Source of the DNA: Patescibacteria group bacterium
GTDB lineage: Bacteria > Patescibacteriota > Minisyncoccia > Phycocordibacterales > JBBUBG01
NCBI GenBank assembly: GCA_040384765.1
Contig: JAZKIQ010000005.1
Span: 358-64,357 of the forward strand
Reading direction: 5' to 3'
DNA length: 64,000 bases
A program made the position numbers and the translations under genes. Positions 5,878-27,254 of the stretch are shown here, in pieces. The number at the start of each line of letters is the position of its first letter. The stretch's first letter is position 1. The notes beneath the pieces were generated by a model. That model saw nothing but the letters and a program-made list of their open reading frames with translations, did not search any database and was not told where the DNA came from.

Positions 5878-5982
5878 AAAATCTCTCAGCTGCGAGGCGC
5901 GCTCGAGCATCGAGCGGGGCTGTACTCAGGCGTACTGCCCCGCGAGGAGGCGCAGAGCGCAACAAAGCAGATGAGGATTTTA
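5878..5982. repeat. family-D MITE-like element copy 1 (10-bp TIR taaaatcctc/gaggatttta, core gagcatcgag...gctgtac...gtactgc) in rsmH-mraZ gap
   Basis: aaaatctctcagctgcgaggcgcgctcgagcatcgagcggggctgtactcaggcgtactgccccgcgagg...caacaaagcagatgaggattttaaa. Confidence 0.55.
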
Positions 5983-5991
5983 AAAGGACGA

Positions 5992-6426
5992 CTATATAAC
6001 CCCTATCTCGCCAAGCTTCTCTGCAAGCTGATCCGCATTGGCGGCGATCTCGGCCTTGTACTTCGCCCATTCATCTGCATCCCAGATCTCTGCTCGTGGA
6101 TGGACACCCGCCACGACCACAGATTCCTTAAGGGATGCAAACTCGCGGAGAAAGTCCGGCACCAAAATACGCCCCAAGCTGTCTACTTCTGTTTCCACAG
6201 CACCGGCGAGCATGAAGCGGTTGAAGCCGCGTGTACTTGCCTGTCCCATCGAAAGCGCCGAGAGCTTCTCGAGTACCCGCTCCCACTCCTTCGGCGGATA
6301 CACAAAGAGGCACTTGTCGAGACCGTACGTAAGCACTACCTTCTTCCCAAGCTCCTTCCTGAACTTCGCAGGAAGCGCCATGCGCTTTTTGTCGTCAATT
6401 GTGTGTTTGTATTCCCCAATCAACAT
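5992..6426 (-). CDS. mraZ: transcriptional regulator MraZ
   Basis: MLIGEYKHTIDDKKRMALPAKFR...; duplicated MraZ fold; first gene of dcw cluster. Confidence 0.85.
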   Translation of the reverse strand: MLIGEYKHTIDDKKRMALPAKFRKELGKKVVLTYGLDKCLFVYPPKEWERVLEKLSALSMGQASTRGFNRFMLAGAVETEVDSLGRILVPDFLREFASLKESVVVAGVHPRAEIWDADEWAKYKAEIAANADQLAEKLGEIGVI

Positions 6427-6457
6427 AAAAATGCATGGCCAAAAATTCACCACTTTC

Positions 6458-6515
6458 TCCCACTACTCACCAAGTATACTCCACTTCATACCACAGCAAT
6501 AGGAAAGACGTGGGG
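6458..6515 (-). promoter_or_regulatory. candidate MraZ operator: GTGG(G) repeats at ~10-bp phasing immediately upstream of mraZ
   Basis: minus-strand reads GTGGtatgaaGTGGagtatacttGGTGagtaGTGGgagaaaGTGGtgaat just 5' of the mraZ ATG; MraZ boxes are phased direct repeats in other bacteria. Confidence 0.4.
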
Positions 6516-6696
6516 ATAAAGGAAAGATTACGGATGAGTTTTCCTGCCTCTCTGGTATCTCCTTTTTGCCGTCGCTGTCTGGGCGTGCTCGCCCAGCGCT
6601 GACTCTCGCGCCGTCGCGCTGCTAGACACGGCAAAAAGGAGCTACCTTCGAGTCAGAAAAATCATCTCGAGAGGAAGGATAGCAAGAGGGAGAAAA

Positions 6697-6724
6697 TTGA
6701 CTTTTACGGTAAAAATGCTATAAT
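6697..6724 (+). promoter_or_regulatory. near-consensus sigma70 promoter with extended -10 (TTGACT-N16-TGcTATAAT) (P1)
   Basis: ttgacttttacggtaaaaatgctataat directly upstream of SD ggaaggagg and ATG 6749. Confidence 0.6.
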
Positions 6725-6748
6725 TTTAGATGGAAGGAGGCCTGAAAA

Positions 6749-7198
6749 ATGGTCTTAAAAATGCCTCGAAAGAAAAGGGTGCTTTTGCTCGCAGACCCGG
6801 GACCGATGATCTGCTTGATCGACAGCCTGCTCACCATGGCACTTGGAATGGAAGTGCGGTACGTTACACTCGCAGACTGCCTCGAGGTGGAAGATGCGGA
6901 CACGGACTGCCTCGCTACGTCTCTTGAAAATCAGGGGCTGGAGATGTCGTGGATGCACCCTGATTGTCTGGTTGGACTCTACGATCTCGCGTTCATGGGG
7001 CGGAAGGAGCAGGCGTACGGTCGCGCATACAATCTGACTCGACAGCTCTTCCGAAACGTTCCGTTCCTCGTCTGCTTACCTGACTTCGAAGTAAGCATTC
7101 TGCCGCCGGACGTTCCCGACTCGCTCAACGTGGAGGATGTTACCTTGGTGGAAGCGAGACATCTCGTCGAGAAAATCAAGGAAGTAGTCCCCAAGTGA
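6749..7198 (+). CDS. hypothetical protein, GC-rich ORFan cassette (weak receiver-domain-like N-terminus?)
   Basis: 149 aa; strong SD ggaaggagg-8nt-ATG, own promoter and terminator; noticeably higher GC than flanking dcw/lysS genes; opposite strand to neighbours. Confidence 0.6.
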   Translation: MVLKMPRKKRVLLLADPGPMICLIDSLLTMALGMEVRYVTLADCLEVEDADTDCLATSLENQGLEMSWMHPDCLVGLYDLAFMGRKEQAYGRAYNLTRQLFRNVPFLVCLPDFEVSILPPDVPDSLNVEDVTLVEARHLVEKIKEVVPK

Positions 7199-7201
7199 AC
7201 A

Positions 7202-7242
7202 GGCCCCGAGGCGCGAAAGCGCTTCGGGGCTTCATATTTTTA
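7202..7242 (+). terminator. rho-independent terminator of the 6749-7198 cassette
   Basis: ggccccgaggcgc-gaaa-gcgcttcggggc followed by ttcatattttt. Confidence 0.6.
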
Positions 7243-7255
7243 ATGCTTGAAATTT

Positions 7256-8728
7256 CTAGCTCTTCGGACGCAATAACGGAAACAACTGTGTCTCGTGGGC
7301 GGACTTATCTTCGAGAAATGCAAAGAGGCGCTCGGAAACGCCAAAGCCAAACGCTGGCGGCATGCCGTGCTCCATCGCTTTTATATACTCCTCATCAAGT
7401 CGCTGCGCCTCATCATCTCCTGCTTCGCGCATCTTTTCTTGATCAAGAAATCGCTCGCGTTGATCAAGCGGATTGTTGAGCTCGCTGAACCCTTTGCCAA
7501 TCTCTGAGCCTGCAAGGATCACCTGGAAGCGCTCCACCTCATCTGGCTTGCCAGGAACACGTTTGGCGAGCGGCTCGAGAAATACAGGCACACCCACGAG
7601 AAACGCTGGTCCTGCGATCCCCTTTCTTATCGATTTCCAGAGATGGTCAATGGCTCGCGCTTTATTAGGCTCCTTCCCCAGATCGACCTTTGCTTTTTTT
7701 GCTGCCGCGATCGCCTCTTCTTCGGTGCAGGCTACTGGGTCAATACCAAAATGCTCTTTTATAGTCTCGCCGAAATGAAGCGTCTTCCACTCCGCCTCGA
7801 GATCTACTTCATGGCCGCGAATTGAAAACTGCATCTTGCCGTACACTTTTTTTGCAACATGCTGGTAGAGATCTCGAATCATCGACATCCCCTTTGTGTA
7901 GTCTGAATACGCTTCATAAAACTCGCACTGGGTATAGTCCTGGAGGTGCTCATTCGAGATACCTTCGTTGCGAAAAATACGCCCGATCTCAAACACTTTT
8001 GGAAAACCCGCTACAAGAAGGCGCTTCTGCCAAAGCTCTCCAGCCGAAATACGCAAATAAGCCTCAATATCAAGGGCATTGTGGTGGGTAACAAAAGGGC
8101 GAGCATCCGCGCCACCGGGCGTTGTCTCAATAGCTGGTGTTTCTACCTCAAGGTATCCCTTTTCGGTAAGAAACTCACGAATCGCATTCCAGAACCGCGC
8201 TTTGCGCATAAACATCTCGCGAATCTCTGGATTGAGCACCATATCGAGATGGCGCGCGCGGAGCCTAAGCTCCTTATCCTCAAGGCCGTACCAAGAGTCT
8301 GGGAGCGGGAGGAGCGACTTTGCAAGCATGCGCCACGACTCTACTTGTACACTTTTTGCTCCGCGCTTGGTGACAAGAAGTACGCCGGTAAACTCTACAA
8401 AATCTCCTGTGTCAGCAGTGGCGAGAAAAAGATCGAACAGGGCCGGGTCCATCTCGTCCTTTTTGAAATACATCTGGAGTCGCGCAATGCCTACAGGCGT
8501 CGAGCCGTCATCGAGATCCGCAAAAGCGAGCGCACCATGCTCGCGCAGAGCCATCACGCGGCCTGCAACAGTGACCTTTTTTTTATCAGCGGAAAGTGAC
8601 TCGAAATCACGAAGCGCGTCGGCAATCGAATGCGTGCGATGCGATTCGGCAGGAAAAGGGTCGATACCGCGCTCCTTGAGAAGCTCCAGCTTTTTAAGAC
8701 GTTCGTTGCGAATATCTTCGAGGGACAT
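7256..8728 (-). CDS. lysS: lysyl-tRNA synthetase (class II)
   Basis: 490 aa, OB-fold anticodon-binding N-terminus plus class II aaRS core, typical LysS length and motifs. Confidence 0.85.
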   Translation of the reverse strand: MSLEDIRNERLKKLELLKERGIDPFPAESHRTHSIADALRDFESLSADKKKVTVAGRVMALREHGALAFADLDDGSTPVGIARLQMYFKKDEMDPALFDLFLATADTGDFVEFTGVLLVTKRGAKSVQVESWRMLAKSLLPLPDSWYGLEDKELRLRARHLDMVLNPEIREMFMRKARFWNAIREFLTEKGYLEVETPAIETTPGGADARPFVTHHNALDIEAYLRISAGELWQKRLLVAGFPKVFEIGRIFRNEGISNEHLQDYTQCEFYEAYSDYTKGMSMIRDLYQHVAKKVYGKMQFSIRGHEVDLEAEWKTLHFGETIKEHFGIDPVACTEEEAIAAAKKAKVDLGKEPNKARAIDHLWKSIRKGIAGPAFLVGVPVFLEPLAKRVPGKPDEVERFQVILAGSEIGKGFSELNNPLDQRERFLDQEKMREAGDDEAQRLDEEYIKAMEHGMPPAFGFGVSERLFAFLEDKSAHETQLFPLLRPKS

Positions 8729-8764
8729 TGAGAAAGGGACTAGGGATCAGGGACAAGGGACTAG

Positions 8765-9232
8765 TTAAACTATCTCCAAAACTGAATATTTTACTTTGCC
8801 GCGAGGAGTTGCCACAGTTACACTGTCGCCCTTCTTCTTATTGAGGAGTGACCGGCCAAGAGGTGATTCATTCGAAAGCTTCTGCTGTGCAATGTCAGCC
8901 TCTTCGGATCCAACGATCAAAAAATCCTGTGTCTCTTTCTCGCCCTCTTTCTGAATAGTTACGCGAGAGCCAATGCTTACCATGCCAACTTTATGCTCCT
9001 TGGTTATTTCAGCATGCTTGAGAATAAGCTCAAGCTTTGAGATACGATCTTCGAGGGCTGCCTGGTTTTCGCGAGCCTCCTGATACTCGGCATTTTCAGA
9101 AAGGTCCCCCAGTGATTTCGCATACTCAAGCTGCTCCGCAATCTCCTTGCGCTTGGTACCTTTTAATACAGCAAGCTCCTTCGTAAGCTCTTCGTACTTC
9201 TCCTGGGAAAGGTAATGTTTCTCTTCGTTCAT
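8765..9232 (-). CDS. greA: transcription elongation factor GreA
   Basis: MNEEKHYLSQEKYEELTKEL...coiled-coil N-domain plus FKBP-like C-domain; ORF track N-terminal extension to 9280 unlikely. Confidence 0.8.
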   Translation of the reverse strand: MNEEKHYLSQEKYEELTKELAVLKGTKRKEIAEQLEYAKSLGDLSENAEYQEARENQAALEDRISKLELILKHAEITKEHKVGMVSIGSRVTIQKEGEKETQDFLIVGSEEADIAQQKLSNESPLGRSLLNKKKGDSVTVATPRGKVKYSVLEIV

Positions 9233-9375
9233 GTCGTTTATTGTTGCGACAATAGTACCATACCAGGACCCTAAACTCAATCGCAGAGAAAAGGTTAGAA
9301 ATACCTTTTACATGGACAGCTGATTGTATTTAGGATAGAAACAATCAAGACAAAAGAACGAAAGGAGTGCGTTGA

Positions 9376-9846
9376 ATGAGAGCGCTTGCAAAAGAAAACC
9401 TGCAGATCAACCTCCTCAACTATAGGAATGCTCGCCGAAAGGAGTTCGAACAGGAACTACTGAGGTTCTTTGAAGGTCCGATGTGGAATGCCTCAATCGG
9501 CCTTCTCGAAGCAACGGAGAGCTACATCGAGATTGCCACCACAGAGCACGGGAAGTGCATTCTCAGTGATCTCGGATTCTTCGTCATTCCGCTCAGTAAG
9601 ATGGAGCATGCTCGTAAGGTCACCATCTCTCAGGTCGCAGCCAACCTTGCACCCCTCGACACGAATCGCGACTGGAATCGACCCTCTCGATTCATCACCC
9701 AGATGCGTTTCAAGCTCGACGAGCTTGCTGGGACTCTGGCCCGAGCCCTGGATTCGAGCGACAAAACGGCGCAGGGGAAGAAAAGCAAAGCAAGGAAGGC
9801 CCCTCGAAACACGAACAAGCACCAACAAGTCACAAAGAAGAGGTAG
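9376..9846 (+). CDS. hypothetical protein (GC-rich ORFan, basic C-terminal tail)
   Basis: 156 aa; SD aaaggag-8nt-ATG; followed by strong terminator; no recognisable domain. Confidence 0.5.
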   Translation: MRALAKENLQINLLNYRNARRKEFEQELLRFFEGPMWNASIGLLEATESYIEIATTEHGKCILSDLGFFVIPLSKMEHARKVTISQVAANLAPLDTNRDWNRPSRFITQMRFKLDELAGTLARALDSSDKTAQGKKSKARKAPRNTNKHQQVTKKR

Positions 9847-9856
9847 CTCCCAATCC

Positions 9857-9891
9857 CCGCCGCGACGGCAACGTCGCGGCGGATCTATTTT
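9857..9891 (+). terminator. rho-independent terminator
   Basis: ccgccgcgacg-gcaa-cgtcgcggcgg then atctatttt. Confidence 0.65.
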
Positions 9892-9918
9892 AGAAACTCC
9901 CACTACCTCGCGTGAACT

Positions 9919-10012
9919 AAAATCCTCGTCTACGAGGCGGCCGGCGAGCATCGAGGCTAGTTGTACTACTAGCCAAGTGGCGGAGCCGCCAACGACGTAG
10001 ACGAGGATTTTA
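9919..10012. repeat. family-D element copy 2 (16-bp perfect terminal IR aaaatcctcgtctacg/cgtagacgaggatttt)
   Basis: shares gagcatcgaggc and gcggagccgccaac core with other copies. Confidence 0.55.
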
Positions 10013-10021
10013 GGAGCGCCA

Positions 10022-11689
10022 TTATTTAAAATACTCAGGAGTATACACCCCCATCCAATCAAGGAGCTGCCTCATCACAAACACGCCACCCACCGTGTTG
10101 TGGACTACCCCGCGCTCCATGACAACCACAAATGCGTAGTGTGGATCATCGTACGGGAAAAAGCCCTCCACCCAGGAGTTGACGCGAGCTTTCGAGGCTC
10201 CGAGCTCTGCTGTACCCGTCTTTGCGGCAATCTCTATGCCAGACAGATTGAGACCTGCCGCAGTACCTTCTGTCACCGCGAGGCGCATTCCTTCATGCAC
10301 AATGTTAAACGCCTTAGGGTCTATCGCAAGCTTTGTTGACGATGCGGTGAATCCATCCTCGCGATGCACGATCGTTGGAGTAAGCAGTAACCCTCTGTTC
10401 GCAACAGCAGCAATTGCGCGAACCATCTCGAGCGGAGTTACCGTAAGGCCGTACTGCCCAATCGATGTGTGGTATGTGTTGCCCACGTACCAGGCCTCTC
10501 CATCAAAATTTTTTGCCTTCCACTCGGGGTTTGGTATTACGCCCATTTTTTCTCCCTCGAGCTCAATACCAGTCCTATCGCCAAAGCCAAACATTTTAAA
10601 ATATTTCTCGATTCGAGAGATTCCGAGCCCTGCCTGACCCTGGAAACCTCCCCCTATTACATAAAAATAGACGTCCGAAGAGACGGCGATGGCGCGCCGC
10701 ATATCCACATATCCATGGGCCTTCCAATCTTTAAACACAGTCGCCTTGGTCTTGTCGTACGGGTTTGGGATCGAGATCTGTCCTGTCGAGAGAATTTGCT
10801 TTTCGGGGGAGATTATCTTTTCAGTAAGTGCAGCGAGAGCCATCATCGGCTTTACGACCGAGCCAGGCGCATAGAGGCCCGAAAGAGCACGGTTGAGAAG
10901 TGGGCGCTCTTTGTCATTAAGAGCTGCTGAAATGTAGTCGCTATCCTTTCCTGAAGTAAACGCATTTGCGTCGTACTCCGGATAGCTCGTGAGCGCAATG
11001 AGCTCTCCTGTACGCACGTCCATAATAATTCCAGCGCCTCCCTCAAAGCCACGGTCAACCGCCACACCCTTGATATATTCGTACAGTTTTTTCTGTACGC
11101 GTGAATCGATCGAAATCTTAAACGAGCTGCCCGGCAGAGGCGGCTGATAGATATTTTCTGAGGCGACCTCCCCCTTTGCGTTCACCTCGATGATCTTCTT
11201 TCCGGCTACGCCACGAAGCTCGCTATTGAGCACCTTTTCCGCCCCCTCTTTGCCGATATACTCTTCGGTCGAGAGATAGTGCTGTTCAGCCAGGTCTGTC
11301 TCGCCCGGGTATCCAACATAACCAAGAATATGAGCAAGCCCCTCTTCCGCTGGATAGGTCCGCTCAGGATCATTGGTAACAAGCTCGACCCCGTTGCGGT
11401 CAAGGATAAGGCCACGCTCACCAAACACAGGAATCTGCCGCAGAGTGTTCGACATGCTACGAGCTCGGTACATCTCCCCTCGCTCCACCTGCAGCGCCTC
11501 GGCTTTCCATATAAAAATACCGAACACCAGGGTAAAGATAACACCTAAGAGGTAGGGCGAGCTTTTTGCTATCGCACGCTCAAGACGCCCCTCAAACTGC
11601 TGAGTATCAAACTGCGGCAGGTTGACCGAGTCGAGAAAAATCTCGTCGGGGTCGATCTGTCCTTTTTTTTGACGGCGTCGAAAAATCAT
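10022..11689 (-). CDS. mrdA: penicillin-binding protein 2 (MrdA, elongasome transpeptidase)
   Basis: SVVKP (SxxK), KTGTAE; directly downstream of mreB-mreC-mreD. Confidence 0.75.
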   Translation of the reverse strand: MIFRRRQKKGQIDPDEIFLDSVNLPQFDTQQFEGRLERAIAKSSPYLLGVIFTLVFGIFIWKAEALQVERGEMYRARSMSNTLRQIPVFGERGLILDRNGVELVTNDPERTYPAEEGLAHILGYVGYPGETDLAEQHYLSTEEYIGKEGAEKVLNSELRGVAGKKIIEVNAKGEVASENIYQPPLPGSSFKISIDSRVQKKLYEYIKGVAVDRGFEGGAGIIMDVRTGELIALTSYPEYDANAFTSGKDSDYISAALNDKERPLLNRALSGLYAPGSVVKPMMALAALTEKIISPEKQILSTGQISIPNPYDKTKATVFKDWKAHGYVDMRRAIAVSSDVYFYVIGGGFQGQAGLGISRIEKYFKMFGFGDRTGIELEGEKMGVIPNPEWKAKNFDGEAWYVGNTYHTSIGQYGLTVTPLEMVRAIAAVANRGLLLTPTIVHREDGFTASSTKLAIDPKAFNIVHEGMRLAVTEGTAAGLNLSGIEIAAKTGTAELGASKARVNSWVEGFFPYDDPHYAFVVVMERGVVHNTVGGVFVMRQLLDWMGVYTPEYFK

Positions 11690-11961: not shown

Positions 11962-12764
11962 ATTTTTTTCTTTTCAATATAGACGCGCTCGAGCGTAAAC
12001 ACATTTACCGGCATCTGAGCAAGTATTGCATTGAGGGATACATCTTTCGACTTTTCTACGCTCCCCACCACGGCACTCACCCGTGAGCCAAAGGCAGGTA
12101 CGGTGACCAGATCGCCCACCTGCACATCTGCAGAGAGCGGCACGCTCGCCCGGTACGATCCTCCGCCCGCACCAGCAATATCAATCGGCGTCTCAGACTT
12201 GCCAACAACTCCGTGAAGCTCCCTTCCGTAGGTAGAAAAAAGTTCTATTTTGGCCTGGGTACCGTACACGTTTGCGACGACGCCAAGCAGTGCGCCCGTC
12301 CCTGAGATGACCGTATCTCCCACACGTATGCCAAGGTTTGAGCCGACATCCACCAAAAAGGTATCGTAAGCGCTCGTGCCGGGCCCCGATAGTACGTTTG
12401 CGAGCACAATCTCCACATCGAGATCGCTACGGCCGAGAGCGCTTTTGAGCTCCTGATTTTCGCGAAGGATCACCTGCTCGACCGAAAGGCGCACCTGTGC
12501 CGACTCGAGCTCTTTTTTGAGCTCGGCATTTTCATCAAGAAGCTTCTGTTTGTCGGTAAACCATGCGGTTGTTCGCCCAATCCCCGGGACCACCGAGCCG
12601 AGCCGCACTAGTGGACCCGTAAGCGCAACGATGACACCGCTTGCCGCAGTTGCTCCCCAAAAGAGCAAAGCCATGCCAAAAAGCGAAAGCAAAAAACGAG
12701 AAAGAAGCGGGAGCGCATGCCATCCGTTTCCTGCTCTATTACCGGGGCGGAAGTTCATCTTCAT
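11958..12764 (-). CDS. mreC: rod shape-determining protein MreC
   Basis: N-terminal TM, coiled coil, C-terminal beta domain; downstream of mreB. Confidence 0.75.
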   Translation of the reverse strand: MKMNFRPGNRAGNGWHALPLLSRFLLSLFGMALLFWGATAASGVIVALTGPLVRLGSVVPGIGRTTAWFTDKQKLLDENAELKKELESAQVRLSVEQVILRENQELKSALGRSDLDVEIVLANVLSGPGTSAYDTFLVDVGSNLGIRVGDTVISGTGALLGVVANVYGTQAKIELFSTYGRELHGVVGKSETPIDIAGAGGGSYRASVPLSADVQVGDLVTVPAFGSRVSAVVGSVEKSKDVSLNAILAQMPVNVFTLERVYIEKKKI

Positions 12765-13797
12765 TATCGGTCAAAATATCTCTATACGCTTCAATATTTT
12801 CAAGTACCATTCCGGTGCCGCGGACAACTGCCGTGAGCGGATCTTCTGCCACATGAACAGGGATCTTTATCTCCTCTTCGAGCATATCGCGCAGGCCAGA
12901 GATGAGTGCGCCACCGCCCACGAGCACGATCCCTCGATGCATAATATCAGACAGTATTTCCGGCGGAGTAGACTCCAACACTTCGCGTACCGAGTTGATA
13001 AGCACGATCATCGAAGGCGCTATCGCTTCACGGATATCAGAGTCCGTGATCACTACCTCGCGAGGAAGGCCCGACACCAAGTCGCGCCCGCGCACTGCTG
13101 TTTCAAGGGGTGAACGACGCGGATCAATAGTGCCAATCGCAATTTTCACATCCTCTGCCGTCTTTTCACCAAGCAAAATCTTAAACTCATCTCTGAAGTA
13201 AGTAATGATATCAGCGTTGAGCTTGTCACCCGCCACCTGGATACTCCGACCAGCCACAATGCCGCCAAGAGAGATAACGGCGATATCGGTTGTGCCGCCA
13301 CCAATATCGATAATCATGCTGCCAACGGGCTCAAAAATCGGTAGCCGAATGCCAACAGCCGCAGCCATAGGCTCTTCGATAACATGTACAGCGCGGGCGC
13401 CTGAGGCAAACGCGACATCGCGCACGGCCCGGCGCTCTACATTGGTAATAGAGAGCGGCACACCAATCACCACACGCGGACGAGCAAACTTATATTTCCC
13501 AAGCGCGCGCGCCTTTTTCAAAAAATACCCCACCATCTCCTCTGTCACCTCGAAATCAGAGATCACTCCGTTGACGAGCGGCCTTATGGCTGTGACGTGT
13601 CCCGGCGTGCGACCAAGCATCTGCTTTGCCGCGCCACCCACCGCGACTACACGACCCGTTTTTTGATTGACCGCCACAACGGACGGCTCATTGATCACCA
13701 CACCGTGTCCGCGCACATACACAAGCGTGTTGGCCGTACCCAGGTCCATACCGATATCGTTTGCAAATAGATTGTAGTAGCGGTCGATTAAATTCAT
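12739..13797 (-). CDS. mreB: rod shape-determining protein MreB (actin homolog)
   Basis: DLGTANTLVYV, GGGTTDIAVISLGG actin-fold phosphate motifs. Confidence 0.85.
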   Translation of the reverse strand: MNLIDRYYNLFANDIGMDLGTANTLVYVRGHGVVINEPSVVAVNQKTGRVVAVGGAAKQMLGRTPGHVTAIRPLVNGVISDFEVTEEMVGYFLKKARALGKYKFARPRVVIGVPLSITNVERRAVRDVAFASGARAVHVIEEPMAAAVGIRLPIFEPVGSMIIDIGGGTTDIAVISLGGIVAGRSIQVAGDKLNADIITYFRDEFKILLGEKTAEDVKIAIGTIDPRRSPLETAVRGRDLVSGLPREVVITDSDIREAIAPSMIVLINSVREVLESTPPEILSDIMHRGIVLVGGGALISGLRDMLEEEIKIPVHVAEDPLTAVVRGTGMVLENIEAYRDILTDNEDELPPR

Positions 13798-15122: not shown

Positions 15123-15190
15123 GTGGTTGTTTGAATGAATGCTACAGGAGAAAAACTGCTTGGTCAAAAAATGCCCGACTCCGATATCTA

Positions 15191-15282
15191 CCTAGAAAAG
15201 CACGATAAAATTCTGTTGAATTTTTCTCTACTCCTCGCCTTCGCTCGTCCGTAAGGCTTTTCCAGGCAAATATCCTCGTCGG
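15191..15282. repeat. family-C repeat copy 2 in proS-rseP gap
   Basis: gaaaagcacgataaaattctgttgaatttttctctactcctcgccttcgctcgtccgtaaggcttttccagg. Confidence 0.55.
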
Positions 15283-15335
15283 GCAGATGCTCTCGTGATG
15301 GTTGAGGCGAGGAAGCGGTACGCTACGCGTGCAAA

Positions 15336-16449: not shown

Positions 16450-16510
16450 CAAGAGTTCAGACATCAGAGTTTAGAGTTCAGTCTGACTGAGCTCTGATCT
16501 CTGAACTCTG
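16450..16510. repeat. family-B palindromic 9-mer cluster copy 1 (rseP start / frr stop gap)
   Basis: caagagttcagacatcagagtttagagttcagtctgactgagctctgatctctgaactctg. Confidence 0.6.
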
Positions 16511-16525
16511 TAATCTGTACTCTTC

Positions 16526-17077: not shown

Positions 17078-17093
17078 AGAAAATCATAGTTAC

Positions 17094-17153
17094 CAGAGAT
17101 CAGAGTTTAGAGTTCAGCCAGACTGAGCTCTGATAACTAAACTCTGAACTCTT
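17094..17153. repeat. family-B cluster copy 2 (frr-holB gap)
   Basis: cagagatcagagtttagagttcagccagactgagctctgataactaaactctgaactcttg. Confidence 0.6.
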
Positions 17154-18340: not shown

Positions 18341-18386
18341 GTGATACAAAAAAACTATATCACTTTTTTATGAAAAGTCAACTTAA
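18341..18386 (-). promoter_or_regulatory. near-consensus promoter P2 (TTGACT-N16-TGaTATAGT) with 6-bp palindrome gtgata/tatcac at the transcription start
   Basis: minus strand reads ttgacttttcataaaaaagtgatatagtttttttgtatcac; highly similar to P1/P3/P4/P5. Confidence 0.55.
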
Positions 18387-18419: not shown

Positions 18420-18524
18420 AAAAATCTTCGAGATGCGAGGAGGTCGGCGAGCATCGAGGCGTAGCTGTACATGGGGTACTGCTAGCCGAGTAGCGGAGCC
18501 GCCGACAAAGCAGATTGAGATTTT
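18420..18524. repeat. family-D element copy 3, between promoter P2 and mreB2 stop
   Basis: aaaaatcttcgagatgcgaggaggtcggcgagcatcgaggcgtagctgtacatggggtactgctagccgagtagcggagccgccgacaaagcagattgagatttt. Confidence 0.55.
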
Positions 18525-18541
18525 GGACGGTCTCCAGAAAA

Positions 18542-19561
18542 CTAGCGCTTAGCATTAACACTCTTTTTATAAACATCGAGATGCTCCAGCGCCACTCCGG
18601 TCCCATTTGCCACACAGTAGAGCGCGTTTTCGGCAAGCACAGCCTTTACACCGGTCCTTCGGTACACAAGCTCTGGCAGGTTGCGGAGTATCGACGAGCC
18701 GCCCGTCATCACGATTCCATAGTCAATAATATCTGCAGCGAGCTCAGGGGGCGTTTCTTGGAGCACATCTTTGATCGCTTTGATCATTTCGCGAAGCTCT
18801 CCATCGATCGCTTTTACGATCTCATTGGTCGATATCTCCACCGATCGCGGAAGCCCTGTCAAAAAATCTCGCCCTTTAATAGCCGTAAACAGCTCATCTT
18901 CCACGAGCACCGCTGACCCGATACTGATCTTCACCTCTTCGGCTGTTCGCTCACCCACCGCCAAGTTGAACGTACGTTTAATATAGTCTGCAATCGCCAA
19001 GTCGATCTTCGTACCAGCGCATTTCACCGATTTGGAAGCAACGATACCTCCGAGCGAGATTACCGCCACATCGGTCGTACCTCCTCCAATATCGACAACC
19101 ATATGTCCGCGTGGCTCATAAATAGGGATACCTGCACCGATGGCGGCCAAGATCGGCTCTTTTACCACATACGCATTTTTAGCGCCCGCTCGTACAGCGG
19201 CTTCGATCACCGCACGACGCTCTGTCGAGGTGACTCCCGCCGGCACCGACACCATCACCTCTGGCTTCCAGATGTTCCAGCGAGGAAGCGCTTTGCCGAT
19301 AAAATAGCGAAGCATGGCCTCCGTCACGCGATAGTCTGCGATGACGCCATCTTTCATGGGCCTGTAGGCGATCACATGATCCGGCGTCTTGCCGATCATA
19401 TCTCTGGCCTCATTGCCCACAGCGAGCACCGTGTTGTCGAGCTCAGACACAGCCACCACCGACGGCTCGTTGAGCACAATCCCCTTGCCAGGCAAAAAGA
19501 CGAGCGTGTTTGCCGTACCCAGATCGATGCCGAGTTTGGTGGTAAAAAAAGGAAGAGCCAT
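18542..19561 (-). CDS. mreB: second MreB/Mbl-like actin homolog; ORF track start 19624 is a TTG extension
   Basis: DLGTANTLVFLPGKG, GGGTTDVAVISLGG. Confidence 0.8.
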   Translation of the reverse strand: MALPFFTTKLGIDLGTANTLVFLPGKGIVLNEPSVVAVSELDNTVLAVGNEARDMIGKTPDHVIAYRPMKDGVIADYRVTEAMLRYFIGKALPRWNIWKPEVMVSVPAGVTSTERRAVIEAAVRAGAKNAYVVKEPILAAIGAGIPIYEPRGHMVVDIGGGTTDVAVISLGGIVASKSVKCAGTKIDLAIADYIKRTFNLAVGERTAEEVKISIGSAVLVEDELFTAIKGRDFLTGLPRSVEISTNEIVKAIDGELREMIKAIKDVLQETPPELAADIIDYGIVMTGGSSILRNLPELVYRRTGVKAVLAENALYCVANGTGVALEHLDVYKKSVNAKR

Positions 19562-19615
19562 GTGTGGGGTTAGTATGCGTTGGCAAGGTTCGTTTTGCAA
19601 ACTGGCCAAAAAAGC

Positions 19616-19722
19616 AAATCCCAAGCACCAAATTCCAGATATATTTCAATATTCAAAATACAAATAACCCAAGTTTAGTATTTGAGTTTTGAGTATTTTC
19701 TGGAATTTGGTGCTTGGGATTT
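19616..19722. repeat. family-F element copy 2 with perfect 24-bp terminal inverted repeats aaatcccaagcaccaaattccaga, in divergent mreB2/priA promoter region
   Basis: perfect 24-bp TIRs; loop aaataacccaagtttagtatttgagttttgag homologous to copy 1 loop. Confidence 0.65.
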
Positions 19723-19770
19723 GAAGAAGGAAGCGCTTCTAGATGCGCCACGTCTATGCCATTATAGCCC

Positions 19771-21754: not shown

Positions 21755-21787
21755 TGAGAGCTTGCTACTTGGAACTGCTTGGTCGCG

Positions 21788-22171
21788 CTAGGCAGCCCGA
21801 AGCGCGCGGAGGCGGACGTACATATCGTACTCCTGCTTCTTCACGCCCCGCCGAGGCACGACCAAGAGGTCCCACTCGCGAGAGAACTGCTGTTCTCCCA
21901 CTTTGAGCTCCGCGGCCGCGAAGGAGAGGGCCATCCCCTTCAACACCTCTTCAGGGAGAGGCTCACCATCTTCGACTTCGAGGTAGTTCGCGCTGATCCT
22001 CTCGAAGAAGGAGGCAATTTCCGGAGTGAGCTCCGGAACGATGCTCACGCTTTCCATCATCTCGTCGTGCAGGCATGGCCTCTTGTCTGCCCTGCTCGCC
22101 CGACGAGCGAGCAAGATGACGAGCATTACGAACGCACAGACGACCTGGGGCCACGAATCGATAAAGAACAA
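21788..22171 (-). CDS. hypothetical small membrane-anchored protein (GC-rich cassette); boundaries uncertain
   Basis: GC-rich region with overlapping ORFs on both strands; minus-strand terminator downstream; consensus-type promoter TTGACT-N16-TACAGT at 22219-22246 and SD gaggagg suggest TTG start ~22171 rather than ORF-track 22279. Confidence 0.35.
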   Translation of the reverse strand: MFFIDSWPQVVCAFVMLVILLARRASRADKRPCLHDEMMESVSIVPELTPEIASFFERISANYLEVEDGEPLPEEVLKGMALSFAAAELKVGEQQFSREWDLLVVPRRGVKKQEYDMYVRLRALRAA

Positions 22172-22218
22172 GGTGCCTCCTCTGCATTTTGCGCATTTCC
22201 GTCTGGAAAGCTTCCGAA

Positions 22219-22246
22219 TATACTGTAACATCTTTTGAAATAAAGT
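22219..22246 (-). promoter_or_regulatory. promoter P5 (TTGACT-N16-TACAGT) of same family as P1-P4
   Basis: minus strand ttgactttatttcaaaagatgttacagt. Confidence 0.4.
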
Positions 22247-22287
22247 CAACATATCCTGCGCGTGGATTGTGAGGCACAATTGAACAA

Positions 22288-23625
22288 ATGGCTGAGATAC
22301 GTGAAATCGTACAGGAAGGGACGCCTGTTCTTCGTGAAGTTACGAAAGAGGTTCCCCTTGAATCAATACGATCTCCAAAAATTCAAAAACTGATCGCCGA
22401 GATGAAGGCGACCGCTTCCAGGTGCGTAGATGGCGTAGCCCTCGCTGCACCACAGATCGGAGAGCCACTCCGCATTTTTGTTGTATCACCTCGTGCCTAT
22501 GCAGAAGGCGAGGATCTTTCGGAAGAGAATCTCGTCTATATCAACCCCAAAATAGTAAAGCTCTCCAAGAAAAGAGAAGAGCTCGACGAAGGATGCCTCT
22601 CTGTGCGCAATGTGTATGGCAAGATCGAGCGCTCAGAACGTGCCACGATCGTCGCATATAATGAGCACGGCGTGTCATTCGAGCGAGGTGCAGGCGGACT
22701 CCTCGCAGAGATATTTCAACACGAGATGGATCATCTCGAAGGAAAGCTTTTTATCGACTTTGCACGCGATCTGCGCATGGTGCCTCCTAAAGAGGTGCCT
22801 CGATTCGTTTTTTTTGGCACACCAGAGTTTGCGGTGCAGGTAGCAGAGGAGCTTGAGAAAAAGGAGCTGCTCCCCATACTAGTGGTTGCTGCACCTGACA
22901 AGCCGGTCGGCAGGAAGGGCGTTATCACTCCCCCACCCATGAAGGTGTGGGCAGAGAAGCGGCACATACCGTGCATCCAACCAGCAACGCTCAAAGGGAA
23001 AGAGGCGCTCGATACTCTTGTCGGGGAACAGCCCATACTGTTTGTCGTTGCCGCCTACGGCAAGATCATCCCTCAATCTATTCTTGATATCCCTTCACGC
23101 GGCACCCTAAACGTGCACCCTTCGCTTCTTCCCCGCCATCGCGGAGCAGCACCTATTCAGACAGCGATTCTTGAGGGAGACAAAGAGACAGGGGTGTGCG
23201 TAATGGTGCTTGATGCAGAGATGGATCATGGGCCAATCCTAGGATGCGAGCGACTAACGCTCGGAGAGTGGAAGCCCTCATACCCAGAGCTCGAAGAGAA
23301 GCTTGCACTTATGGGAGGTAAGCTTCTCGCGCGCCTTATCCCAAAATGGGTCAAGGCAACTATTGAGCCGAAGGAGCAAGATCATGTGAAGGCAACATTT
23401 ACAAAAAAACTTGAGACCGAAGATGCATTTGTTGAGCCAGGCGAAATAGAGAGCGAGCTTGCCGATCGCAAGATTCGCGCACTGCATCCGAGCCCAGGCG
23501 CATATACGATATTAAAAACAAAGACAGGCAAAGAGGTGCGACTCAAACTGCTACCTGGAGGCAAAGTGATTCCGGAGGGGAAAAAAGAGATGCTGTTTAG
23601 AGAGTGGAAGAGGGGCAATCTCTGA
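22288..23625 (+). CDS. def-fmt: fused peptide deformylase / methionyl-tRNA formyltransferase (Def-Fmt fusion)
   Basis: N-terminus has Def motifs GVALAAPQIG, EGCLSV, QHEMDHLEG; C-terminus has Fmt motifs FFGTPEFAV, HPSLLPRHRGAAPIQ; single uninterrupted 445-aa ORF. Confidence 0.8.
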   Translation: MAEIREIVQEGTPVLREVTKEVPLESIRSPKIQKLIAEMKATASRCVDGVALAAPQIGEPLRIFVVSPRAYAEGEDLSEENLVYINPKIVKLSKKREELDEGCLSVRNVYGKIERSERATIVAYNEHGVSFERGAGGLLAEIFQHEMDHLEGKLFIDFARDLRMVPPKEVPRFVFFGTPEFAVQVAEELEKKELLPILVVAAPDKPVGRKGVITPPPMKVWAEKRHIPCIQPATLKGKEALDTLVGEQPILFVVAAYGKIIPQSILDIPSRGTLNVHPSLLPRHRGAAPIQTAILEGDKETGVCVMVLDAEMDHGPILGCERLTLGEWKPSYPELEEKLALMGGKLLARLIPKWVKATIEPKEQDHVKATFTKKLETEDAFVEPGEIESELADRKIRALHPSPGAYTILKTKTGKEVRLKLLPGGKVIPEGKKEMLFREWKRGNL

Positions 23626-23740
23626 CCAACGTCAGAGATTGCCGGTTGGTAATCCAACCGAGACCGAAGCTGCACCCGAACGATAGTGAGGAATAAGTGC
23701 AGGTGAGAAAATCTGACACAAGAGATCAGAGCTCAGTTAG

Positions 23741-23785
23741 AAAAAAATTCAAGCCCCGGTTCGCTTGCGCGAACCGGGGCTTTCC
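23741..23785 (-). terminator. GC hairpin terminator (gccccggttcgc-ttgc-gcgaaccggggc), copy 1 of a duplicated hairpin
   Basis: on minus strand followed by ttgaattttttt; near-identical copy at 24102-24131. Confidence 0.6.
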
Positions 23786-23791
23786 GCGGGT

Positions 23792-24082
23792 CTAGGCCCG
23801 ATCGGCGTCCTCCATCTCCTGCTCATGGCTACGGAGACGCTCCGCCTTCTCCTCTTCGGCGGCCTGCTTCTGCGCGAGGATAGCGCCCACGACATCAGAC
23901 ATGTCCGAGGAGCGCAGCCTGCTGCAACAGTCTCGGTAGGCCGCCATGATCTCGTCGTGATTCTCAGGAATCTTGGTAGCGCGCAGGAGTCGCTCGAGCA
24001 TCTCGAGCTGACCCTTCGTCTGCACCATCTTGATGATCGCCACCACCGAGAGATGGAATGGCTTGAGATCTTTGGGATCCAC
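23792..24082 (-). CDS. hypothetical protein (GC-rich, GTG start with SD aaggag)
   Basis: 96 aa, acidic C-terminus; flanked by two near-identical GC hairpins. Confidence 0.5.
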   Translation of the reverse strand: MDPKDLKPFHLSVVAIIKMVQTKGQLEMLERLLRATKIPENHDEIMAAYRDCCSRLRSSDMSDVVGAILAQKQAAEEEKAERLRSHEQEMEDADRA

Positions 24083-24101
24083 GATTTTTCTCCTTGGTTT
24101 T

Positions 24102-24131
24102 CGCCCAGGTTCGCTTGCGCGAACCTGGGCG
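24102..24131. repeat. second copy of the ttcgcttgcgcgaac GC hairpin (cgcccaggttcgc-ttgc-gcgaacctgggcg)
   Basis: shares 15-nt core with hairpin at 23753-23780. Confidence 0.55.
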
Positions 24132-24146
24132 GTTGCGAACTAGTGC

Positions 24147-24530
24147 TTAGCTCAAGTGGACTTCGTAGCGATGGTGCTCGAGGCGCACGACGGAAGCGAG
24201 CAACGACTCGCAGTGAGTAGTCGCCCGTTCGACCCAGGTGAGGGTCAGGACCTCGACGCGAGACTGGCCGTCAACGAGCCTGTCTACGAGAGTTGCGAGG
24301 TCGAGAGGATGAATGCTCGAGAGCTTAAGTATCAGATCCTTAGAGCGGGTCAATATCAGGACCGTCAACGCGGCAGACCTTTCGGTGATGTCACCATTCG
24401 GCCCCCTTTCGATGTGCCTGATCTCCTTCCAGTACACCTTCGGATCAGACTCCTTGTCGTTCACGGCAAACTCTCCTGCCACCTTCAGATTCTCCAGTTT
24501 CTTCACAGGACATTCCCCTTTCGTTGCCAA
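24147..24530 (-). CDS. hypothetical protein (GC-rich; TTG start at 24530 or GTG at ~24506)
   Basis: 127 aa; upstream consensus promoter P3; forms two-gene islet with 23792-24082. Confidence 0.45.
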   Translation of the reverse strand: MATKGECPVKKLENLKVAGEFAVNDKESDPKVYWKEIRHIERGPNGDITERSAALTVLILTRSKDLILKLSSIHPLDLATLVDRLVDGQSRVEVLTLTWVERATTHCESLLASVVRLEHHRYEVHLS

Positions 24531-24567
24531 GGACTCGCAGACCTACCGGTATCTGCATCCCTTGGCG

Positions 24568-24596
24568 TGAAAGTTGCCGGTAGCTATCTAATATAA
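24568..24596 (-). promoter_or_regulatory. consensus promoter P3 (TTGACA-N17-TGcTATTAT); -35 overlaps the upstream terminator stem
   Basis: minus strand ttgacattcttcataaatagtgctattat. Confidence 0.55.
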
Positions 24597-24615
24597 TAGC
24601 ACTATTTATGAAGAA

Positions 24616-24650
24616 TGTCAAAAGCCGCCTCTGGGCGGCTTTTGACATTT
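24616..24650. terminator. bidirectional terminator (14-bp perfect stem tgtcaaaagccgcc/ggcggcttttgaca)
   Basis: perfect palindrome downstream of cyclophilin gene. Confidence 0.6.
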
Positions 24651-24668
24651 AATGAGTTGGAAATAGAG

Positions 24669-25376
24669 CTACTTCACTACTACGCTCGTGAGCAGAATAT
24701 CCGTAAGCGGTTTGTCTCCTTCTCCATGATTTACCGGAGCTGACTCGATCTTATCAACAATATCCATACCAGAAACGACACTGCCAAAAGCGGTATGCTT
24801 GCCGTCGAGCCATGGGGTTGCCGGGGCAGTGATAACAAAAAACTGCGAACCGTTTGTGTTTGGCCCCGCATTTGCCATTGCGAGCACACCACGCACAAGC
24901 GCCTCATCGCTCGTCTCGTCTGCAAACTGGTAGCCTGGGCCGCCAGTGCCCCAAGAGGCCCGCTTGCTTGAATCCTTTGAAAACGGATCTCCGCCCTGGA
25001 TCATGAACCCCTTGATCACTCGGTGAAAGCGGGTGCCATCGTAAAAATGCTCATGTGCAAGCTTGAGAAAATTTTCAACTGTCTTTGGAGCCTTATCGCG
25101 AAAGAGCTCGAGCTCGATAATGCCAAGCGAAGTGGTAAAGACAACATGAGGGCGAGCATTTGGGGTTTCCATAGGTTTTGGTGGGGTTTTTATAGCTGGA
25201 GAAGTAATAGCAGGAGCGGTATGAACTCCTGAGACAGCCGCGTCTCGAACAAATGAGTCTTGCTCTGTCGCGACTGACCGCGAAAAGAACACGAGGCCAC
25301 CTGCAGTAAAGGCTGAAAATACAATAAAAGTGATCCAGTAGGCGATATCTTTCATTAAAATAGAATACCGCATCAA
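24669..25376 (-). CDS. ppiB: membrane-anchored cyclophilin-type peptidyl-prolyl cis-trans isomerase
   Basis: N-terminal TM; FHRVIKGFMIQGGDP cyclophilin signature. Confidence 0.8.
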   Translation of the reverse strand: MMRYSILMKDIAYWITFIVFSAFTAGGLVFFSRSVATEQDSFVRDAAVSGVHTAPAITSPAIKTPPKPMETPNARPHVVFTTSLGIIELELFRDKAPKTVENFLKLAHEHFYDGTRFHRVIKGFMIQGGDPFSKDSSKRASWGTGGPGYQFADETSDEALVRGVLAMANAGPNTNGSQFFVITAPATPWLDGKHTAFGSVVSGMDIVDKIESAPVNHGEGDKPLTDILLTSVVVK

Positions 25377-25388
25377 GAGATAAGAGGC

Positions 25389-25479
25389 CAGAGTTCAGAG
25401 CTCAGTCAGAACGAAAGCGGCGCCTCGAAGAGGCGCCGCAGCCTGAACTCTGTTTACTGAACTCTAATCTCTAAACTCT
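25389..25479. repeat. family-B cluster copy 3 with embedded GC hairpin gcggcgcctc-gaa-gaggcgccgc (hpf-ppiB gap; last unit overlaps hpf stop codon)
   Basis: cagagttcagagctcagtcaga...gcctgaactctgtttactgaactctaatctctaaactct. Confidence 0.6.
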
Positions 25480-25840
25480 ACTCCCCCGTATGTATCATCT
25501 CCTTGATCGCGCGGCCCCCTTTGCGTTCAAGATCCTTCTTTTTATCGCGAAATGAGGTAACCTGCTCCTCGATCTCATCTTTCACTGCATCAATAGCCGC
25601 ATACATATCCTCTTTTTCTGCTGTCACCGTAAACTTCTTGCCATACGCGCGCAAAATAATCTCCGCCTTGAATATAACTCCGGATACGTGATGTTTCGTG
25701 GTCTTGCCGATATCCACCTGGGCAATTGCAGCATCCTCGGTTGCATCTACGATTTTGCCTACCTGGGTAAGCTTTTTTTCAACATACGAACGCAGCGCTT
25801 CTGTAAGATCAGTACCTACTGCCGTAATATTGATTTTCAT
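25478..25840 (-). CDS. hpf: ribosome hibernation promoting factor (HPF/RaiA family, short form)
   Basis: MKINITAVGTDLTEALRSYVEKKL... sigma-54 modulation protein fold. Confidence 0.8.
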   Translation of the reverse strand: MKINITAVGTDLTEALRSYVEKKLTQVGKIVDATEDAAIAQVDIGKTTKHHVSGVIFKAEIILRAYGKKFTVTAEKEDMYAAIDAVKDEIEEQVTSFRDKKKDLERKGGRAIKEMIHTGE

Positions 25841-25888
25841 GCTTTGTTTGTTATGCCTTGTAGCTACAGTGTACACCAACGAGAACAC

Positions 25889-27094
25889 CTATGATGACGA
25901 AAGAGTTGCTCTTCGTTTCCCGATGAAGAGAACAAAGAGGAGTGTGCCCGCGCACATCGCAAAAGCTCCATACCAAAGCGCAGAAGCAAATCCGTAGACT
26001 GTCCAGATTGTTCCACCAATAACTCCCGCCACAAGGCTTGAGATTCCGATGGTTGCACCGATCATCCCCTGGGCACCGCCTCGACGCTCATCCTCGACAA
26101 GCTTGGCGGCATATGAGCGCAAAATCCCATCAGTAAGCGCAGAGTAGAGGCCAAGCAACACAAACCCAAGAAGAATCGCCCACGGCTCTACAGAGAGAGC
26201 GAGTACGATGTAGGAAACGATTGCAACAGCAAAGCCCGCGAGCACCATACGGCGCTCGCCGAAGCGGTCGGAGATCTGTCCTATCGGAAAGGCAAAGAGT
26301 ACAAACGAAAGACTGTAGATAAAGTAAAAGATCGGTACAAACGAGAGATCGGGATTGATCGGTGCAATACGCAGAAGAAGAAGCGATACCGGAAGCATGC
26401 CAAGGCCGAACACAAACGTGGCAAGGAGAAGCTTCTGAAACTCCCGTGGATACGAGCGGATACTCCACGAAAGCTTTTTCGCCAGAGGACGATCAGAGGG
26501 CACGTCGTGAACAAAGAAAAACGCGAGGAGCGCGAGGATTCCCGCAATAAAACCGATAAAAAAGAGGCTGCGGTAGTTGAAAAAAAGATACGGCAACAAG
26601 AAAAACCCTACGAGAGGACCGATCGTGCTGCCAATCGTATCCATAGCTCGATGGTAGTTGAACGACTTACCGAGGTCTTCACGAGGGGCAGAGTCAACAA
26701 TGAGTGCATCGCGCGGTGCGTCGCGAAACCCTTTTCCGATCCGATCGATAATACGAAGACCAAACACCCCTGCCGCCGAAGCGGTAAACACGAGGCCTAG
26801 GCGCGTAAGCACCGAGAGCGTATATCCCGCAAACGCAAGGCTCTTTCGTTTTTTTAGATAGTCCGATAGATGGCCAGAAAAGATCTTGAGTACGCTCGAG
26901 AGAGCATCTGCAGCACCCTCGAGAAGCCCTACAAAGGCCGGCGTGGCCCCGAGCAGGGTCGTCAGGAAGACTGGCATGACCGAGTAGACCATCTCCGAAG
27001 AAAGATCGTTGAGGAGGCTAACGATGCCGAGGTAAAAGACGTTCGAATCGAGCCCGGCAATTTTTCGTTTTTGCATACGGCTAGTATCACACAA
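25889..27094 (-). CDS. MFS transporter
   Basis: 401 aa, 12 predicted TM, MFS loop motif GRLSDRFGRR-like (ISDRFGERRM). Confidence 0.7.
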   Translation of the reverse strand: MCDTSRMQKRKIAGLDSNVFYLGIVSLLNDLSSEMVYSVMPVFLTTLLGATPAFVGLLEGAADALSSVLKIFSGHLSDYLKKRKSLAFAGYTLSVLTRLGLVFTASAAGVFGLRIIDRIGKGFRDAPRDALIVDSAPREDLGKSFNYHRAMDTIGSTIGPLVGFFLLPYLFFNYRSLFFIGFIAGILALLAFFFVHDVPSDRPLAKKLSWSIRSYPREFQKLLLATFVFGLGMLPVSLLLLRIAPINPDLSFVPIFYFIYSLSFVLFAFPIGQISDRFGERRMVLAGFAVAIVSYIVLALSVEPWAILLGFVLLGLYSALTDGILRSYAAKLVEDERRGGAQGMIGATIGISSLVAGVIGGTIWTVYGFASALWYGAFAMCAGTLLFVLFIGKRRATLSSS

Positions 27095-27150
27095 AACAAG
27101 AAACCGCCGAAGCGGTCTCTTGTTGTAGCAGCGACTTAAGCATTAGCTAT

Positions 27151-27254
27151 AAACCTTTCATATGCGAGACGCAGGTGAGCATCGAGCAATGCTGTACTTA
27201 AAGGTACTGCTTTGCGAGCAAGCGGAACCTGCAACGAAGCAGATGAAGGTTTTA
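27151..27254. repeat. family-D element copy 4 (diverged TIRs aaacctttc/gaaggtttta)
   Basis: gcaggtgagcatcgagcaatgctgtacttaaaggtactgctttgcgagcaagcggaacctgcaacgaagcagatgaagg. Confidence 0.45.

Follow-up and report, generated by a model that had tools for sequence, protein, structure and literature searches.

What is a sequence of about 105 bp doing five times at the gene ends of a small, tightly packed bacterial genome, and which part of it is being kept? The repeat, family D, lies in a 64,000-nucleotide stretch of contig JAZKIQ010000005.1 (hereafter the window, meaning that stretch at its full length), from a Patescibacteria metagenome-assembled genome whose RsmH and SecY are MES2953400.1 and MES2953637.1. 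Its ends are inverted repeats, and the initial annotation took it for MITE-like (a MITE being a miniature inverted-repeat transposable element). We conclude that family D is probably an interspersed palindromic repeat that is non-autonomous, restricted to one lineage and, in the broad sense used for bacteria, MITE-like, and that was spread by insertion to gene 3' ends and operon junctions and then kept by selection as a five-helix hairpin with an invariant core. We regard it as a new example of a known repeat class in an unusual host, not as a new class; the repeats closest to it in kind are the SPRITE, ERIC and Correia elements.

A hairpin with a conserved core and variable ends

The initial annotation had placed four copies of an interspersed, non-coding, palindromic element of about 105 bp in the window, and both the copies and this description hold, with a few ends shifted by 1–3 nt. 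A covariance model (R1) built from these four copies scores them at 98–121 bits, with copy 1 at 5877–5982 (117 bits), copy 2 at 9918–10012 (98.5 bits; its apical helix is missing), copy 3 at 18420–18525 (105.6 bits) and copy 4 at 27148–27254 (120.8 bits). The rest of the window reaches at most 33 bits and the rest of the + strand at most 30 bits. A fifth, degenerate copy lies at 49501–49604 (30 bits, E about 1e-5; the model match spans 49500–49606); the decamer GAGCATCGAG is gone from it, and it retains the outer stem CTAAAATTTC...GGAATTTTAG and CGAGG motifs. All five window copies are oriented on the + strand, a point absent from the initial annotation. Identity between copies is 72–78%, and mean column identity across the alignment of copies 1–4 is 75%. 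A stricter pattern scan of a metagenome collection added two further copies on short contigs of one metagenome, here called L020 (1472–1578; 68 bits with the window-only model) and L021 (897–1013; 73 bits with the same model). Since the SecY of L020 is 87% identical to MES2953637.1, this contig represents the closest known relative of the window genome.

Each copy folds into one long imperfect hairpin of five helices (z = -3.7 to -9.5 against dinucleotide shuffles). From the outside inwards, the outermost helix AAAAUCYUC/GARGAUUUU is followed by a UGC/GCA helix, an internal loop GAGG / ACAAA and a variable helix of 5–7 bp. Further in lies a core block where small purine-rich loops flank a fixed GC/GC pair (5' side GAGCAUCGAG, 3' side CGAGnAGCGGA), and beyond it a variable helix of 6–7 bp and an apical GUAC/GUAC helix closed by a loop of 4–6 nt. 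The near-invariant, asymmetric, purine-rich core consists of GCGAGG, GAGCATCGAG, CGAGnAGCGGA and ACAAAGCAG; the decamer GAGCATCGAG occupies 5905–5914, 9946–9955, 18449–18458 and 27177–27186 on the + strand in copies 1–4. At the unpaired positions of the core, the six good copies (window copies 1–4 with those of L020 and L021) all agree, while the helices vary. A GCGGA(G/A)CC core had been described as common to all copies; it stands for the others and fails for copy 1, which has GCGCAGAGC.

Two CGAG tetramers, one of them the last four bases of the decamer, stand on either side of the inner variable helix (P4). Facing each other as 5'-CGAG-3'/3'-GAGC-5', they give a C-G pair, tandem G.A/A.G and a G-C pair. 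Tandem G.A motifs are stable. They form on the + strand only, the complement giving pyrimidine-pyrimidine mismatches at the same positions. The + strand has a purine content of 56–61%, and folding energy is lower for the purine-rich strand than for its complement in all seven copies.

The fold is maintained by paired changes. Standard pairs fill 95.1% of the pair cells in the six good copies, compared with 74.5 ± 2.2% in shuffles, and 17 of the 27 pairs have changed on both sides. None of 500 shuffles matched any of these measures, and controls with slid partners gave at most 5 double-changed pairs. Even the degenerate copy 5 has GUAG/CUAC as its apical helix, compensatory to the GUAC/GUAC of the other copies. 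Copies that are only 72–78% identical and yet paired at 95% of pair positions are not recent copies in neutral decay.

A MITE in the strict sense would have terminal inverted repeats (TIRs) of at least 10–15 bp common to its copies (PMC11602168) and a flanking target-site duplication (TSD) of 2–10 bp. Inverted termini are present in every copy of family D, but their sequence varies by compensatory change. The termini TAAAATCCTC...GAGGATTTTA, assigned earlier to all copies, are exact in copy 2 only: the left end of copy 1 reads TAAAATCTCTC, and the two ends read AAAAATCTTC...TGAGATTTTG in copy 3 and TATAAACCTTTC...GAAGGTTTTA in copy 4. Copy 2, credited with a perfect TIR of 16 bp, has a perfect outer stem of 18 bp (CTAAAATCCTCGTCTACG). 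Across copies, 9 of the 13 pairs of the outer helix change on both sides, also within the supposed TIR of copy 4, and in L021 the same core is enclosed by another outer stem, perfect over 18 bp (CAGAACCTTCAGAATTAG / CTAATTCTGAAGGTTCTG). Copies 3 and 5 each carry additional complementary flanks of their own, those of copy 3 adding the outer pairing GAGACC/GGTCTC and those of copy 5 continuing the stem out to 49492–49613. Conversely, copy 2 and the L020 copy, from different genomes and with different neighbour genes, are alike past their supposed ends (CCyCGCGyrAAC before TAAAAT on the left; GGAGCGCC after ATTTTA on the right). By the condition under which the initial annotation would have given up a mobile element with defined ends, no single pair of ends is shared once the additional copies are aligned: the terminal stem covaries and that of L021 differs. 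The best-conserved part is the asymmetric internal core, the termini being less so. Family D is in this respect a clean case, with the fold and the internal core under selection and the termini not.

The core had also been compared to the palindrome upstream of lexA, as GTAC repeats spaced by 6–7 nt. GTAC...GTAC is the apical stem of the hairpin, with a loop of 4–6 nt, and its spacing, N5–N6 within the window, is N4 in one copy from the metagenome; a single GTAC is present in copy 2. It is hardly credible that LexA or another dimeric regulator binds this palindrome as a DNA operator, and we rejected the resemblance. The half-site TGTAC does recur in the palindrome TGTGTACGATCGTACACA described below, and the L020 copy does have the N4 spacing, but the dyad has no fixed spacing (N5, N6, N6 and N4, with none in copy 2), copy 5 has changed to GTAG...CTAC in the compensatory manner typical of a stem, and the copies stand 3' of housekeeping genes and away from promoters, a LexA operator being a fixed-spacing dyad at the promoters of SOS genes. 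The palindrome actually upstream of lexA is TGTGTACGATCGTACACA, perfect over its 18 bp. It occupies 32213–32230 and is separated by 12 nt from the LexA-like (Peptidase_S24) gene (32243–32812) downstream, which is followed by a DinB/IMS polymerase gene (32917–34392). This palindrome is probably the LexA box of the organism.

Insertion at gene ends and the question of mobility

All five window copies begin 8–18 nt past the stop codon of a - strand gene. Copy 1 starts 9 nt from the mraZ stop (5992) and ends 28 nt before the rsmH start (5848), both genes being on the - strand; copy 5, likewise, lies 8 nt from the atpG stop (49613) and 25 nt before the atpD start (49475), so that these two copies are within the mraZ-rsmH and atpG-atpD junctions. 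Copy 2 begins 9 nt past the stop of the - strand PBP2 gene (10022) and has an orphan + strand open reading frame (ORF) on its opposite side. Copy 3 is 16 nt from the stop of a second mreB paralogue (18542, - strand) and is followed by a strong - strand promoter-like site at 18381–18354. Copy 4 is 18 nt from the stop of a 49-aa membrane ORF (27273–27422, - strand) and 53 nt from the start of an MFS transporter gene (27094). The L020 copy follows the same pattern, 23 nt past the SecY stop and antisense to the gene. The exception is L021, whose copy has the sense orientation and lies about 20 nt upstream of a gene for an RRM protein. The same contig has a long hairpin directly past the RRM-protein gene (480–548), for which only generic miRNA-precursor-like matches were obtained.

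Comparison with relatives points to a gain of these copies. L017 (RsmH 69% identical) is syntenic over RRF, M50 protease, aminoacyl-tRNA synthetase (aaRS), mreB, mreC, PBP2, greA, asnS, mraZ, rsmH, ftsL, ftsI and mur genes, and its junctions are short: 21 bp for mraZ-rsmH, 42 bp for PBP2-greA and 4–5 bp around ftsI. In L018 the mraZ-rsmH junction is 31 bp and the element is absent. Past SecY, L020 has the element where L023 and L024 have ordinary terminators (AAAAAATCCCCTC gcat GAGGGGATTTTTT in L023). The orthologous junctions of L017, L018, L023 and L024 are thus without the element, and neither covariance model finds a family D copy in about 64 kb of these relatives, compared with five in the 64 kb of the window. 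Because of this absence at orthologous junctions, the simplest reading is that the element was gained by insertion, apparently in the lineage of the window genome and L020.

Searches over a wider range were negative. Among 185,579 species genomes scanned by pattern there were 16 matches and no true copy; as all 16 were in high-GC genomes and negative by covariance model, they are chance matches. The scan of viral contigs gave 0 matches, and copy 3 had no blastn match in the plasmid and phage collections. Rfam has nothing at gathering threshold in the window, and relaxed thresholds yield only chance-level matches (E > 1) on the elements. Our search of the literature on CPR (Candidate Phyla Radiation), Patescibacteria or Parcubacteria repeats of this kind found nothing relevant.

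How could such an element move? A TA or TAAA target had been suggested from the flanks. TA...TA is present in five of six copies, with an outer C and G in copies 2, 4 and 5 and in L020 (four of six) and an outer T and A in copy 1. Elements of the IS630 family insert at TA and duplicate it, with a preference of IS630 itself for TA in CTAG (PMC2170065, citing Tenzen & Ohtsubo 1991). Because the TA and CTAG flanks match this preference, trans-mobilisation by an IS630-type transposase is the leading candidate route. The TA part of the suggestion stands as a fit to an IS630-type target; TA and CTAG are self-complementary, so that a TSD is indistinguishable from an extension of the palindromic stem. 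A transposase would, moreover, not account for the compensatory change in the supposed TIR or for the invariant internal core.

These observations bear directly on whether family D is a classical MITE, that is, a deletion derivative of an IS630/Tc1-mariner-type element, trans-mobilised through TIRs of ~10–18 bp, with TA duplicated within CTAG and the hairpin as a by-product. The CTAG-like ends of copies 2, 4, 5 and L020, the TTA...TAA of copy 1 and the target preference of IS630 (PMC2170065) all fit it. So do the small size, inverted termini and intergenic sites, which match the MITE definition (PMC11602168, PMC3184786), the empty sites in relatives, and the presence of other palindromic repeat families in junctions of the same genome. 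We nevertheless consider it unlikely. The supposed TSD is equally well a stem extension, and no parent is in sight: Pfam and NCBIfam scans of the about 65 window ORFs detected no transposase, RAYT, TnpB or Y1_Tnp domain, and the 64-kb window holds no full-length insertion sequence (IS) with the same TIRs, the sequence TAAAATCYTC being found only at the elements and in single one-mismatch matches inside genes, with no distant pair of termini. The terminal helix covaries (9/13 pairs) instead of keeping a single binding sequence, and L021 surrounds the same core with a different outer stem. Conservation is highest in the asymmetric internal core, which reverses the pattern of a typical MITE; 72–78% identity with 95% pairing is not neutral decay, and all five window copies share one orientation. 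What survives of the initial MITE-like assignment is an interspersed, inserted and palindromic element; a classical transposon defined by TIR and TSD is not proven.

The pattern of a conserved core and variable ends also suggests another kind of mobility. Family D could be a hairpin-recognised mobile module, in which a protein reads the core (tandem G.A and purine-rich loops) on single-stranded DNA or RNA, and not the termini, and which reaches the 3' ends of genes in this reduced CPR genome in a strand-specific manner, by a route undescribed for such elements; alternatively, the hairpin could be a dedicated RNA-protein mark of 3' ends. Conservation of the core with variable ends, the strand bias (six of seven copies) and the similarity of copy 2 and L020 past the supposed TIR are compatible with it. 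We rate such a module as quite unlikely. The core-conserved, ends-variable pattern and the strand bias remain the main interest of the family.

Possible roles of the hairpin in transcripts

We return to our preferred reading, an inserted repeat retained as a hairpin. Insertions would have spread family D to 3' gene ends and operon junctions of this Patescibacteria lineage, after which selection would retain the long five-helix hairpin and its asymmetric purine-rich core. With copies 1 and 5 placed between mraZ and rsmH and between atpG and atpD, the element is probably co-transcribed in - strand polycistronic mRNA as an intergenic hairpin. There it may act as a leaky terminator or read-through attenuator, as a barrier to 3' exonucleases or as a site for a double-strand RNase, and in this way it could uncouple the flanking genes in their expression or set their relative levels. 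A protein may land on the conserved core, be it a mobilising enzyme or a factor that binds or processes RNA. The bias in orientation could arise if the hairpin of the purine-rich strand, being more stable and then followed by U4, were too polar in mRNA and so counter-selected; a strand-specific insertion mechanism is another potential source. By analogy, the likeliest role is one known from SPRITE, ERIC, Correia and REP, which are co-transcribed intergenic repeats (PMC3184786). If a role in transcript ends or processing is true, family D would give a handle on operon tuning in organisms with few known regulators.

Several points weigh against this reading. The known copies number seven, from 2–3 genomes, and we infer the RNA-level role rather than observe it. 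The purine-rich, better-folding strand is the non-transcribed one in six of seven copies, which is awkward for a function purely at the mRNA level. GC skew is negative over the whole window, so that orientation with respect to transcription is inseparable from orientation with respect to replication. The two strands have similar z-scores, and the difference in folding energy may therefore be partly compositional. The count of 3 G.U pairs to 1 A.C pair leaves the functional strand undecided. Finally, hairpin-templated repair at the DNA level could also yield compensatory changes without selection on RNA.

Could the copies be ordinary bidirectional intrinsic terminators, with hairpins that happen to be long and are related by descent? 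Their sites are directly past stop codons, an A tract and a T tract flank the stem (AAAATCCTC...GAGGATTTT), the terminator past SecY in L023 is similarly shaped, and the gene strand has promoter-like sites past copies 2 and 3. However, the stem is followed by no more than 4 U, whichever the direction, compared with at least 5–6 U directly after a G+C-rich stem-loop for an intrinsic terminator and with the T run of 6 in the clear terminators of the window (31121–31160 and 60118–60155). A terminator scan flags no full element, its sole match, in copy 2, being a 5-pair inner sub-stem. Copies 1 and 5 lie only 25–28 nt before the next start inside their junctions; the - strand would thus have to be transcribed through them, and they would not be efficient terminators. 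Efficient termination at these two copies would silence essential downstream genes, and relatives have no terminator at mraZ-rsmH. Nor does termination need an invariant 10-nt loop sequence or five conserved helices. We consider this explanation very unlikely.

The opposite strand raises a different possibility, a multi-copy gene for a structured small RNA, expressed off the + strand, antisense to the flanking genes and with the tandem G.A as a protein-binding module. Such a gene would explain why the + strand folds more stably in seven of seven copies, why the CGAG/CGAG around P4 yields tandem G.A on that strand only and why the covariance model favours it over the - strand by about 100 bits; strong covariation with invariant unpaired nucleotides is also what functional RNAs display. 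We find it highly improbable all the same, since no copy has a + strand promoter-like site upstream, no Rfam family matches, and the element is absent in relatives and tied to no one gene neighbourhood. Its position abutting stop codons of the opposite strand is better explained by mRNA or by insertion preference, and the L021 copy is in the sense orientation.

Known repeats and other palindromic families

SPRITE, ERIC, Correia and RPE are established repeat families, many of them co-transcribed and altering mRNA stability (PMC3184786). SPRITE elements, of ~105 bp, with a terminator-like structure and biased to gene 3' ends (PMC3184786), are like family D in size, in their terminator-like predicted hairpin, in their 3'-end bias and in having no associated transposase. 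They differ in that family D has an unrelated sequence, belongs to another phylum, occupies operon junctions, has a U4 tail only and contains a large asymmetric core; the SPRITE bias is to convergent gene ends, and in family D only copy 2 lies between convergent ORFs. The ERIC (or IRU) sequences of Enterobacteriaceae (~127 bp) are also imperfect, intergenic palindromes, often 3' of genes. They are transcribed intergenic sequences, are co-transcribed, can alter how stable the upstream mRNA is and have TA at both termini (PMC3184786). ERIC has no sequence similarity to family D and occurs in both orientations, family D in one within the window. The action of ERIC through RNase E has been demonstrated, whereas a corresponding role of family D would be inferred only.

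Correia (or NEMIS) elements of Neisseria, MITEs of ~104–157 bp with a TA target duplication, resemble family D in size, TIRs, intergenic location and long hairpins. They are co-transcribed. Their 26-bp TIR is conserved, and they carry promoters and an IHF site (PMC3184786); in family D, by contrast, the TIR covaries, the conserved part is internal and no promoter was detected. MITEs derived from IS630/Tc1-mariner elements share with family D the TA flanks in CTAG (PMC2170065), the inverted ends and the small size. Family D differs from these in having no parent IS or transposase in the window, ends that are not common to all of its copies and a hairpin constrained over its whole length. REP, BIME and REPIN sequences are similar as extragenic palindromes at 3' ends or operon junctions, and recognition would go by structure and not by TIR. 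REP elements stabilise mRNA, and their hairpins, like those of family D, are kept by compensatory change. For REP-type repeats mRNA stabilisation is also described in PMC3184786. REP units measure ~35 nt and carry a 5' GTAG that is conserved, REPINs form symmetric doublets, and the REP/REPIN-RAYT system is defined by such doublets, a hairpin of ~20–40 nt with a conserved 5' tetranucleotide and a RAYT (Y1) gene, whereas family D is a single asymmetric hairpin of ~105 nt and the window has no Y1/RAYT gene.

Family D is not the only palindromic repeat of the window. A second family, of the type AGAGTTCAGAG...CTCTGAACTCT, has five copies in direct orientation (16452–16517, 17088–17153, 25376–25479, 46307–46412 and 53089–53154), each filling a junction of - strand genes, such as that between RRF and the M50 protease or in the atp operon. 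A third family (4381–4479 and 15172–15285) and a fourth (2524–2627 and 19615–19723) are ~100 nt long with perfect arms of 18–20 bp; their sites are at ftsL-ftsI, M50-aaRS and ftsI-murF and beside mreB, and the equivalents in L017 are 3–5 bp. Three more palindromic families at junctions that are tight in L017 indicate that the genome has been colonised repeatedly. At least four families of 70–105-nt palindromic repeats fill junctions that are only 4–42 bp in the syntenic relative. Since this is a small, tightly packed Patescibacteria (CPR) genome, reduced genomes are evidently still colonisable by hairpin repeats.

Two weaker matches to family D were examined and set aside. The segment 60933–60965, 76% identical to the core of copy 2, was considered as a sixth copy and rejected, being coding sequence with a model score of 9.7 bits only. 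The decamer GAGCATCGAG is exact there (60937–60946) and at 56696–56705, both times on the + strand and within - strand genes (for a DoxX protein and an AI-2E transporter, respectively); these extra sites, at 9.5–9.7 bits by the model, are probably due to chance or codon usage. The match at 6551–6648 belongs to an unrelated single-copy hairpin, an imperfect 120-nt structure at 6539–6661, upstream of mraZ, with arms of 47 nt that are 74% complementary; its match to the family D model is weak (19 bits) and on the - strand only.

The surroundings of the copies hold further features of their own. Between copy 2 and greA lie about 640 bp (9281–9917) that are absent in L017. They contain the orphan + strand ORF (9376–9846, 156 aa), for which Pfam and NCBIfam gave no match, followed by a GC-rich terminator hairpin at 9857–9882. 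The two MreB paralogues (12739–13797 and 18542–19624) are about 71–72% identical over matched DNA stretches; only the first is in the conserved mreBCD-PBP2 block, and the second precedes copy 3. At 22288–23625, a single 445-aa ORF combines peptide deformylase and formyltransferase (Fmt) N-terminal domains, an apparent def-fmt fusion.

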